NCBI GenBank assembly: GCA_043813875.1 | Contig: JBDRKP010000004.1 | Location: 1 to 24,572 of the forward strand | Reading direction: 5' to 3' | DNA from: an archaeon | Lineage (GTDB): Archaea > EX4484-52 > B79-G9 | Length of the DNA: 24,572 bases | Shown here: piece by piece, positions 3,360 through 5,938 of the stretch | Layout of the letters: every line of letters starts with the position of its first letter | Numbering within the stretch: position 1 is the first letter of the stretch | Notes under the pieces: generated by a model | What the model saw: only the letters and a program-made list of their open reading frames with translations | Told to the model about the DNA's origin: nothing | The model's database searches: none | Program-made: the position numbers and the translations under genes

Positions 3360-3917
3360 ATGAATACGATTAAAATCTGTTTTTGCACATTATTATTCCT
3401 TGTTATGTTTTTTGGGAGCGTTAATGCGCTTATAGTTATCAATGAGGTTGAGTTGAATCCACCTAGCCAATATGATGATGATGAATGGATTGAGCTATAT
3501 AATACGGGCGATTATCCTGAAGATATTTCCGGATACACTTTAACGGATGGCGGAGGGATGGTGGATACGATACCTAGCGGAACGATAATAGGACCGGGAG
3601 AATTTTTTGTTTTTACAGAGGATATTAGTGGATTATCGCTAGATAATGCCGATGAGTCCATTACGCTGAATAATAGTTTCGGGCAAATCGAAGATGTCAC
3701 TCCAACACTTATCGATTCGGCGAATAATCTTAGCACATGGCAGCGCATCCCTGATGGTGATAACAACTGGCAGTTCCTTGAGGGGACAGCGGGCGCAAGC
3801 AATGGCGGTGACGGAGGAAATGGCGGAATACCGGAGTTCCCGGCGTTCATCGTGCCGGTTCTTTTGATGTTTGCAGGTGTTTCGGTTGCGAGAAGATATG
3901 GCGGATTATATAGTTGA
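3360..3917 (+). CDS. Secreted lamin-tail-domain protein with PEF-CTERM sorting signal
   Basis: Signal peptide; IVINEVELNP...EWIELYN...DISGYTL (LTD); WQRIPDG; C-terminal IPEFPAFIVPVLLMFAGVSVARR (PEF + TM + basic residues). Confidence 0.88.
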   Translation: MNTIKICFCTLLFLVMFFGSVNALIVINEVELNPPSQYDDDEWIELYNTGDYPEDISGYTLTDGGGMVDTIPSGTIIGPGEFFVFTEDISGLSLDNADESITLNNSFGQIEDVTPTLIDSANNLSTWQRIPDGDNNWQFLEGTAGASNGGDGGNGGIPEFPAFIVPVLLMFAGVSVARRYGGLYS

Positions 3918-3946
3918 AGACAGAACTTTTGGAACTAATGTCTTCA

Positions 3947-4012
3947 CCATATAGATTAACGTCTCTTGGTTTTTGGCTAAGTTTGTCCATTTAGTAACGA
4001 CGTTAACTATAG
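3947..4012. repeat. Structured repeat element, copy A (unrecognised)
   Basis: CCATATAGATTAACGTC-N-TTTGTCCATTTAGTAACGACGTTAACTATAG. About 53/67 positions identical to 5595-5661 by manual alignment. Terminal stem TATAG(A)TTAACGTC/GACGTTAACTATA. Confidence 0.8.
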
Positions 4013-4249
4013 CTAATCTTCGAATGCTTCAAGGGCTTTTAGTATCTGGTATTCTTTGTAGCCGTCTTCTTTGAGCATCTCGCGTACAATTGCTTTTACT
4101 TTTGTGGGGTTGGCGTCTATGCCGATATCTTTTAGGTGCGCTTCGAGGCCTTCCGGACCGTTCTCGCCCAGATAGGCGCGTGCGGCTTCTATGGCAATTC
4201 TATCAATCATCATATCTGTTTGATGATGAAGGTTTAACTTCCTATCCAT
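4013..4249 (-). CDS. Small helical hypothetical protein
   Basis: 78-aa ORF with natural-looking amphipathic composition (KVKAIVREMLKEDGYKEYQILKALEAFED). No family recognised. Confidence 0.6.
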   Translation of the reverse strand: MDRKLNLHHQTDMMIDRIAIEAARAYLGENGPEGLEAHLKDIGIDANPTKVKAIVREMLKEDGYKEYQILKALEAFED

Positions 4250-4668
4250 GTTTAGGTCAATCCTTTCGGCACGGCATCTATGGATCAGCCTTATTAATGC
4301 CGGTACGAAATCATGTTGTATGAGGTGGTTTTATGAGAAGAAATGCAAAGGGAAGAGGGAAACAAAGGACGATGCTTTTACAGTTCCCTAATATGACGGT
4401 GTGGTGGGTGGGGTCTTCCCGCCATCATTTTTAGAATCGGATTGATTAGGTCTTAATCTGAAACAGGATTGTATGCGATTACAGTATACGGATGCTTTCA
4501 CATTCATGAAATAAAGTCAATGCGAATATCATGATTCCGGAGGATTGCATATTCATCCGGGTCAGATGAATTGGTAAATCCCGGAGAATCTGTGTTTCCT
4601 GTGATGAGAAACCATATTGAGGGTTATCACCATAACATGTTTTATGTTTGTGAATAAAAGATCGGCTT

Positions 4669-5466
4669 TCATTCAAGGAAGGCGTCGAGTATGTCTCTTA
4701 TGTTCTCTGCCTCTATTATCTGTATGCCTGTCTCTTCTGAGAGGTTGATTATCGTGGCTTTTATTTCAGGCTGGCAGTATTCGTATGTGCCCCAGGTGTG
4801 GCAGAATTCCTCTTCTGTGTAGTTGATCTCTGTCGATGAGCCTACGGATACGTAGAATGCTTTTGCGCCGTTCTCTTTGGCTGAGATGGCTTTTTCTTTT
4901 ATCTTTCCGGCGGGGCCGATTGTGCCGTCATGGTTTATGGTGCCGGTTATCATCACGTCGTCTCTTATCTTTTTGTCTTCCAGAACTGCGATGGTGGCGA
5001 GGGTTATTGCTGCGCCTGCTGACGGGCCTTCGAGGACGGTTGCGTTTGCATAGAGGTCGTAGATGATGTCGTGGTCGCTTATGTCTATATTGGAGATATC
5101 TGATGCAACCAATGCGGCCATGCGGATTGAATTCAAGGTCTCTTCTTTGGATAAGACACGGTTGAGGTTTATCAGTATCTGACCGCTGCCAGGTACGACT
5201 GATACGTCAAGATTTGCAGATACGCCGGTCCCGTTGCGGTTCACGGCAGGAAGGCGGATTGATGCGCGCCGTTCATCGTGGATCACAAGAGGCGCTTTGC
5301 TGCATGTGTTTGATAAGGAGATTGTGGCCGGAGTTGATGTGTTTTTGTGTATCCCGACGGATATGCCGAATAAGAATGCAAGCATCACGAGCATCACTAC
5401 AGGAATCCAGTTCCTGGATGAGGTTGTTATTTTTTCCTGGTCATTTTTAGAAGTCATACTGTTCAT
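4669..5466 (-). CDS. Membrane-anchored Lon-like S16 serine protease (protease domain only, no ATPase)
   Basis: N-terminal TM helix; EGPSAGAAITLA (catalytic Ser); MITGTINHDGTIGPAGKIKEKAISA (catalytic Lys). Confidence 0.9.
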   Translation of the reverse strand: MNSMTSKNDQEKITTSSRNWIPVVMLVMLAFLFGISVGIHKNTSTPATISLSNTCSKAPLVIHDERRASIRLPAVNRNGTGVSANLDVSVVPGSGQILINLNRVLSKEETLNSIRMAALVASDISNIDISDHDIIYDLYANATVLEGPSAGAAITLATIAVLEDKKIRDDVMITGTINHDGTIGPAGKIKEKAISAKENGAKAFYVSVGSSTEINYTEEEFCHTWGTYEYCQPEIKATIINLSEETGIQIIEAENIRDILDAFLE

Positions 5467-5594
5467 TGGTATAGCCTGTTAATATATTTTTGCGAATCAT
5501 GATGAGGTTTGTTGTTATAGTAAACGCCATAACTTTTTCATGGCACTTACATGCCAAGCTTTTGAGACAAGCTCAAAATAGACAAATGGCGTTT

Positions 5595-5661
5595 CCATAT
5601 AGATTGATGTCTATCGGTTCATAGGTCATATTTGTCCATCTAGTAACGACATCAACTATAG
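5595..5661. repeat. Structured repeat element, copy B (unrecognised)
   Basis: CCATATAGATTGATGTC-N-TTTGTCCATCTAGTAACGACATCAACTATAG. Same stem as copy A with two compensatory pair changes. Directly abuts the SRP RNA 3' end. Confidence 0.8.
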
Positions 5662-5938
5662 TGGCAAAGCGCGCGCATAAGTGGGCAGACTTCCTGAATG
5701 CAGAATCCTTGTCTCTACCTCGGCACTGTGTCCTGAAAGCGCCCATGCGATGCTTTAGGGCTGCTCCGATCAAGGCCTGACCCGGTTCAACAAAGCATGA
5801 ACCTATCAGGGCAGTGAGTCATTGTTCAAGACAAAGCCAATACATCCAAAAAGCATTGCCGCCTTATGCGCTTTGGCCCCTGCATGTAGACGGTTTCAGG
5901 TAACAGGGCCCGCCTAGCGCCCCGGCCTAGCTTTGCCA
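5662..5938 (-). ncRNA. ffs: Signal recognition particle (7S) RNA
   Basis: Minus strand: helix 1 UGGCAAAGC/GCUUUGCCA closes the ends. Archaeal Alu domain UAGGCCGGGGCGCUAGGCGGGCCCUGUUACCUGAAACCGUCUACAUGCAGGGGCC. Helix-8 SRP54 motif GAACC-GGGUCAGGCC...GGAGCAGCCC. Length ~277 nt. Confidence 0.93.

Follow-up and report, generated by a model that had tools for sequence, protein, structure and literature searches.

A probable miniature inverted-repeat transposable element family with a foldback hairpin at each end in archaea of the EX4484-52 lineage

[quoted passage not shown] Here we describe a short repeated DNA element with a foldback hairpin at each end from a 24,572-nt stretch of an archaeal genome (assembly GCA_043813875.1, contig JBDRKP010000004.1, lineage EX4484-52, B79-G9), hereafter the window, which carries two copies of it, copy A (3909..4011) and copy B (5516..5660). 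Both hairpins of the element most probably belong to copies of a non-autonomous, MITE-type mobile DNA element, a reading to which we give a probability of about 85%. The element is short, has many dispersed copies with inverted-repeat ends and flanking TA, and differs in presence or absence among relatives; it is too short to encode a transposase. Like the Correia elements it has inverted-repeat ends and an insertion-site TA, is found in dozens or more intergenic copies near genes and can fold into hairpins. Unlike them it has an archaeal host, an unrelated sequence, a covarying foldback hairpin at each end, and long forms that are chains of small hairpins.

The element also resembles the IS200/IS605-derived palindromes and the REP/BIME repeats with their RAYT, which likewise are short non-coding hairpin repeats with covarying stems and a motif at the hairpin foot; it differs from both in its inverted-repeat ends, in the TA on both sides, and in that no Y1 or TnpB gene with these ends was found. 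Within the archaea, SM families of MITEs were reportedly described in Sulfolobus by Redder, She and Garrett in 2001. Cognate insertion sequences (ISC1733, ISC1058) are known for Sulfolobus MITEs (SMN1, SM3A), which share with the present element an archaeal host, a short length without an open reading frame (ORF), inverted-repeat ends with short direct repeats, and a transposase supplied in trans (PMC3718332). By contrast, no cognate was found for the window element, and its host lineage and sequence are different. A census of prokaryote MITEs counted 18,091 in 8,220 archaeal genomes, and MITEs are to be expected in DPANN archaea because their density was highest in these small-genome organisms (PMC11602168). 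The passages of that text consulted do not describe the present family, which may be listed without a name in the supplementary sequence lists. A further report gives a very low content of insertion sequences for Nanohalarchaeota (PMC13343696). A full-text literature search found no description of the family, and it appears to be a new, apparently unnamed representative of a well-known kind.

The evidence that the element has moved comes from sites that are occupied in the window and empty elsewhere. Copy A occupies the entire spacer that separates two convergent genes, one for a Lamin Tail Domain protein (3360..3917, + strand; PF00932, E 2.1e-15) and a 78-codon ORF (4013..4249, - strand). In the congener G001 the same genes, including a homologue of the 78-codon ORF, converge tail to tail on an uninterrupted TTATAG, whose TAG terminates the Lamin Tail Domain gene. 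The window element lies inside that TA of TTATAG, flanked by TA on either side, and its insertion has shifted the stop of the Lamin Tail Domain gene, which gains two more codons and ends at a TGA (3915-3917) inside the element (3909-3917). A second congener, G007, also lacks copy A at this locus. Copy B lies between the gene for the signal recognition particle (SRP) RNA (5663..5937, - strand; Rfam RF01857, 132.7 bits against a gathering score of 96.5) and the next gene, and the congeners G005 and G007 have no element beside their SRP RNA genes. Thus, both window copies are absent at the same loci in relatives that retain intact SRP RNA and flanking genes. At this second locus the congener G002 carries a copy about 170 nt away, in the opposite orientation.

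Metagenome data agree with these comparisons. Four DNA runs yielded short contigs that cover small shares of the stretch; in these runs other copies cease to resemble the window precisely at 5516 and 5660. One run, X6, is from marine sediment and contains a 300-nt contig that represents an empty allele of locus B and joins position 5508 to 5659, with an exact right junction that reads TA followed by the SRP flank. On contig C42, one copy sits within the core loop of a second family member and is bordered by TA at both ends, and intact copies of this host member have one TA at the nesting site; on contig C53, two adjacent copies share one TA. A single TA is found at the empty site of G001, at the X6 joint and in intact copies of the nesting host. 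Copy A shares 99% identity with a copy that occupies another locus in the congener G004 and 92-96% with many others, and the genes that flank it are only about 70% identical among congeners. Because copies are 92-99% identical where genes are about 70% identical, these results indicate recent spread and not old conserved sites.

The two window copies belong to a large family. The window's genome (1.64 Mb in 90 contigs, 91.5% complete, 43.8% G+C) gave 33 matches in a DNA search with copy A; an iterated nhmmer profile of the 65-nt core converged on 48 copies, and a covariance model built from 37 short copies produced 79 matches at E <= 0.01. The additional matches of the covariance model are diverged subfamilies that have other stem sequences and an identical build. 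In the window the model matched copies A and B only. A preliminary description of this DNA had reported a twin structured element of about 66 nt at 3947-4012 and 5595-5661. These two sequences are indeed alike (79% identity, or 76% over 80 nt), and their closing stems do differ by two fully compensatory pairs (alignment columns 55/103 and 57/101). They are not a pair, given the 48 cores in the same genome, and the 66-nt unit, a real hairpin, is the right end of longer elements that start at 3909 and 5516.

The complete unit consists, in order, of TATAGT, a first hairpin, a conserved CCATATAG, a core hairpin and an ACTATA end. It runs TA-TAGT...ACTA-TA and has a length of 101-474 bp, with a span of 93-474 bp from TA to TA among 43 copies measured. 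A short form of about 103-106 bp contains the two hairpins only (26 copies), and a long form of up to 474 bp has additional small hairpins, which are placed inside the first hairpin's loop and/or between the ends (22 copies). The two ends occur together: 35 of 36 left ends have a right-end core 36-409 nt downstream, and the exception lies 159 nt from a contig end. They form imperfect terminal inverted repeats that extend for about 35-40 nt: the leftmost 40 nt agree with the reverse-complemented rightmost 40 nt at a mean of 22 positions (typically 24-28; shuffled sequences 14.3; n=43). The right end reads AACTATA in 47 of 48 copies, TATAG is conserved 5' of both hairpins and CTATA follows the second, and T-runs are conserved in the left loop.

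Copy A is a short form of 103 bp on the + strand, including its terminal TAs at 3909-3910 and 4010-4011. The covariance model match extends over 3906-4013 (E 3.6e-20), and the boundaries were taken from the family alignment. Its left-end foldback hairpin (3915..3946; arms 3915-3923 and 3938-3946) corresponds to helix 1 of the alignment and was refolded with DNA energies; its right-end foldback hairpin (3950..4011; arms 3950-3954 plus 3956-3963, and 3999-4011) corresponds to helix 3 and is the copy A of the preliminary description. Copy B, on the same strand, is 145 bp long with its terminal TA pairs (covariance model match 5513-5662). Here, the loop of the left-end hairpin (5522..5594; arms 5522-5530 and 5586-5594) holds a 41-nt module of two hairpins at 5538-5578, and the right-end hairpin (5598..5660; arms 5598-5602 plus 5604-5611, and 5648-5660) is the previously noted copy B. 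In the metagenome runs this module is exactly missing from other copies, which join 5537 to 5579. The motif of the first module occurred 12 times, always inside family elements and never outside. The inner modules might conceivably be mobile elements in their own right; they are mostly confined to the family, and a few simple hairpins occur alone.

Several individual copies depart from this plan. The longest (G000:C13:19320-19794, 474 bp) contains two copies of a G+C-rich palindromic motif of about 25 nt that is unique to it and may be a further small nested repeat. The left end of another (G000:C14:23703-23930) is cut off directly after the end of an ORF, and it looks like a later insertion or rearrangement took the left terminus. 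In two copies from named metagenome-assembled genomes (MAGs; L092:460-567 and L116:447-554), the loop of the right hairpin is interrupted after its T-run by another hairpin-forming sequence, so the element appears itself to be a target for other small repeats.

The covariance model matched 18 of 42 genomes of the order at E <= 1e-10, all of them incomplete MAGs of 0.5-2.2 Mb. By rank, matches were found in 8/8 genomes of the genus, 6/8 others in the family and 5/26 outside the family. A pattern scan of named genomes located 74 loci, 65 of which are in records titled Candidatus Nanohalarchaeota archaeon. Four loci came from a MAG titled Methanosarcinales, with flanking proteins 73-85% identical to those of the window's genome, and one from a MAG titled Bacteroidota, with flanking proteins about 100% identical. 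Transfer between phyla was ruled out by this identity of the flanking proteins (73-100%), and the contigs in question (L066, L082, L099, L107, L078) are probably misbinned or mislabelled. Searches of phage and plasmid collections with copy A gave no match. One 146-bp family member in the window's genome lies between genes matching ATP-synt_F and vATP-synt_AC39; tested as an old shared insertion, its flanking genes were found to match different contigs in relatives.

Both hairpins are maintained by compensatory change. In the alignment of the 37 short-form copies, 98.8% of the cells of the first hairpin (helix 1) are paired and 6 of its 9 pairs have changed on both sides; for the core hairpin (helix 3) the figures are 94.8% and 7 of 13. 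No shuffle out of 500 equalled the observed pairing or covariation of the whole structure, a figure that is not a probability because the aligned copies are mutually related, and slid controls paired at 31-41%. The stem cells are almost purely Watson-Crick (328/333 in the first hairpin, 455/481 in the core hairpin), with 2 G-T and 10 A-C cells of wobble type. When folded with DNA energies, both strands of both window copies gave the same two hairpins, with z scores of -3.5 and -3.5 for copy A and -5.3 and -6.2 for copy B (0/200 shuffles as good). RNA folding energy favoured the minus strand in 27 of 48 copies and the plus strand in 19, and an early impression that some inner modules prefer the minus strand did not hold for the whole element. 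Since the stems are almost purely Watson-Crick and both strands fold alike, a DNA palindrome fits better than an RNA; one RNA strand under selection would be expected to use wobble pairs. Template switching during replication can make the arms of a DNA palindrome alike, and the covariation seen here therefore need not mean selection.

Finer details of the right hairpin had also been noted. The loop motif is kept, its TTTG being invariant in all 37 aligned copies, and the single bulged base, present in both window copies, is absent from 10 of the 37 (column 52). The loop had been proposed to pair outside its stem as a pseudoknot, and its partner proves to be the loop of the first hairpin of the element. 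In this loop-loop helix 85.6% of cells are paired, only 2 of 7 pairs show double-sided change, each time in the same single sequence, and one pair is open in 21/37 copies. A pseudoknot was rejected on the ground that the match is conserved and hardly covaries; it is best read as part of the inverted-repeat ends because the left and right 40 nt are alike.

The preliminary description had proposed that the hairpins are a new RNA motif which forms or protects transcript 3' ends, as a ribozyme, nuclease site, terminator or exonuclease block. The positions of the two window copies are in keeping with this: copy A, whose last base is 4011, lies 1 nt from the stop (4013-4015) of the minus-strand 78-codon ORF, and copy B ends at 5660, 2 nt beyond the Rfam match of the SRP RNA gene at its 3' end. 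Across the genome such abutment is a tendency and not a rule. Using crude gene calls (longest ORFs of at least 80 codons, covering 87% of the genome), 47 of 48 copies lie outside genes, and 36/94 element ends face a gene 3' end while 58/94 face a 5' end, two further ends having no neighbouring gene. All four gene arrangements occur around the copies (tandem in one sense, 17, or in the reverse sense, 10; divergent, 15; convergent, 4). Of 83 ends, 21 fall in the interval -15..+12 nt around the stop of a frame that is open for at least 70 codons, which could be taken as a sign of 3'-end function; they probably cluster there because the TA target occurs within TAA and TAG, spacers are very short and the inward-reading ends of the element contain stop codons, and the gene-end positions first noticed are thus accounted for without an RNA function. 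The covarying stems would also be in keeping with an RNA, and the 10 A-C against 2 G-T cells mean that a few mismatches would be G-U pairs on the minus strand only; in the right hairpin, however, 17 of the 26 mismatched cells would be wobbles on neither strand. No Rfam family matched the hairpins even at E <= 5, where the window gave two chance-level matches, neither on the hairpins. Taken with dozens of copies in both orientations, the lack of strand preference, the empty loci in relatives and copies 92-99% identical across species whose genes are about 70% identical, this makes an RNA 3'-end motif highly improbable. The other suggestion made at the time, a hairpin-bearing mobile element, was essentially right, the copies being many and their placement not bound to gene ends as for a MITE. 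A mixed account would have mobile DNA of which some copies were co-opted, the plus-orientation T5 runs (in the left loop and in the A-type right loop) as putative terminators and the TATA-like ends as putative promoter pieces for the gene beyond the right end. It draws on the conserved T-runs of the left loop, on the places of copy A in a convergent spacer and of copy B between the SRP RNA gene and the next gene, and on the right end, which faces a gene start in 32 of the 47 copies with a right neighbour and an end in 15; at the left end no comparable bias is seen (26 starts and 21 ends). The bias is modest, however, and was obtained with the crude gene calls, the next start codon lies at widely varying distances beyond the right end (-13 to 1094 nt), and a preference for AT-rich promoter regions as targets could produce the same effect. 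We consider co-option improbable.

According to the MITE reading, the element would move as DNA using an enzyme encoded elsewhere and would land at a TA, so as to be bordered by TA at both ends. Insertions right at gene termini would be tolerated, as the TA may lie in TAA or TAG and the element ends, read inwards, contain stop codons. The hairpins may be kept either because palindromic or folded ends are a requirement of the transposition machinery or because template switching during replication carries changes over between the arms. Members of the IS630/Tc1 group typically target TA, and a transposase of this type is for that reason the first guess for the enzyme, a guess resting only on the target. 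The window's genome contains one IS630-type gene (DDE_3, with a probable frameshift) and one Y1_Tnp fragment at a contig end. The former (G000:C62:11873-12990; L135:956-2070) consists of two overlapping frames joined at an A-run, a probable programmed frameshift; the latter (G000:C84:3171-3335; L134) is cut by the contig end and is followed by a G+C-rich hairpin unlike the element.

A number of observations weigh against this reading, most of them concerning the enzyme. At E <= 1 the element was matched at none of the 6 IS630-type and 4 Y1-type loci examined across the genus or order, which include the four Y1_Tnp loci considered for a relationship of the REP/BIME and RAYT kind. The IS630 copy of the window's genome (contig C62) has no clear inverted repeats and its ends share 5-9 matched bases with the element, and in G005 the IS630 copy carries 36-nt inverted repeats with no likeness to the ends of the element. 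IS630-type genes are present in 3/8 genomes of the genus and the element in 8/8; conversely, genome G018 has six IS630-type matches and no element. Among 14 left-end loci of relatives no left-right pair encloses a gene, the right end lying 140-480 nt away, and at locus L147 neither a right end nor an obvious gene was seen in the next 700 nt. A DDE transposase that reads sequence would leave the fully covarying, sequence-drifting stems unexplained. At the insertion sites, duplication of the TA is indistinguishable from an element that carries its own terminal TA, and the X6 empty allele also lacks 7 additional bases on the element's left side. Every genome used is an incomplete MAG, and insertion sequences that are repeated often remain unassembled in MAGs; failure to find a full-length insertion sequence therefore does not show its absence.

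The stems could point to a different way of moving, as folded single-stranded DNA handled by an HUH/Y1-type enzyme as for IS200/IS605-derived palindromes or REP repeats with RAYT, in which the hairpins would be read by shape and cut at TA-TAG by the hairpin foot. Full compensation of both hairpins in every subfamily despite differing stem sequences would be explained in this way, as would the TATAG 5' of both hairpins with CTATA after the second, and Y1_Tnp is present as the fragment in the window's genome and as three loci in G003 and G005. Yet the element ends are inverted repeats, which those of IS200/IS605 are not, and the constant flank is only TA, shorter than the 4-5-nt targets of IS200/IS605. 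Neither wobble pairs nor folding energy favours one strand, none of the four Y1 loci has an element end nearby, Y1_Tnp occurs in only 3/8 genomes of the genus, and the window's genome gave no TnpB-type match; movement by such an enzyme is thus unlikely. A related idea is that the element is recognised by shape as folded DNA by an enzyme outside the two transposase families found, as suggested by foldback ends that are kept by full compensation in every subfamily while their sequences drift. We give this only a small chance. If true, it would represent a new hairpin-end transposition system of small-genome archaea that lands on TA, often that of stop codons, and collects small hairpin modules as cargo.

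The SRP RNA is the sole Rfam RNA gene in the window at gathering scores, no tRNA or tmRNA was found there, and the 78-codon ORF matched no Pfam family. In the congener G007 a T5 run directly follows the SRP RNA 3' end, where the window has the element instead, and on the SRP RNA strand of the window the first T4 run comes about 88 nt further on (region 5509-5662). Because the element and not a T5 run follows the gene, the hairpin may form a 3' trailer on the precursor of the SRP RNA. An ORF with a Lon protease C-terminal proteolytic domain (4669-5466, - strand; PF05362, E 2.1e-12) and an N-terminal hydrophobic stretch is located downstream of both copy B and the SRP RNA gene.

For the annotation of these genomes the family matters in that about 60 copies break assemblies, many matches in relatives being at contig ends, and in that copies alter the final codons of genes and may be misread as RNA genes or as regulatory motifs. 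It also illustrates that a functional RNA cannot be concluded from strong covariation in a repeat, as the palindromic ends of mobile DNA give the same signal. The element serves as a lineage marker that exposes wrongly binned contigs. Its enzyme, if found, would mean one more transposition system for archaea from which very few insertion sequences are on record.

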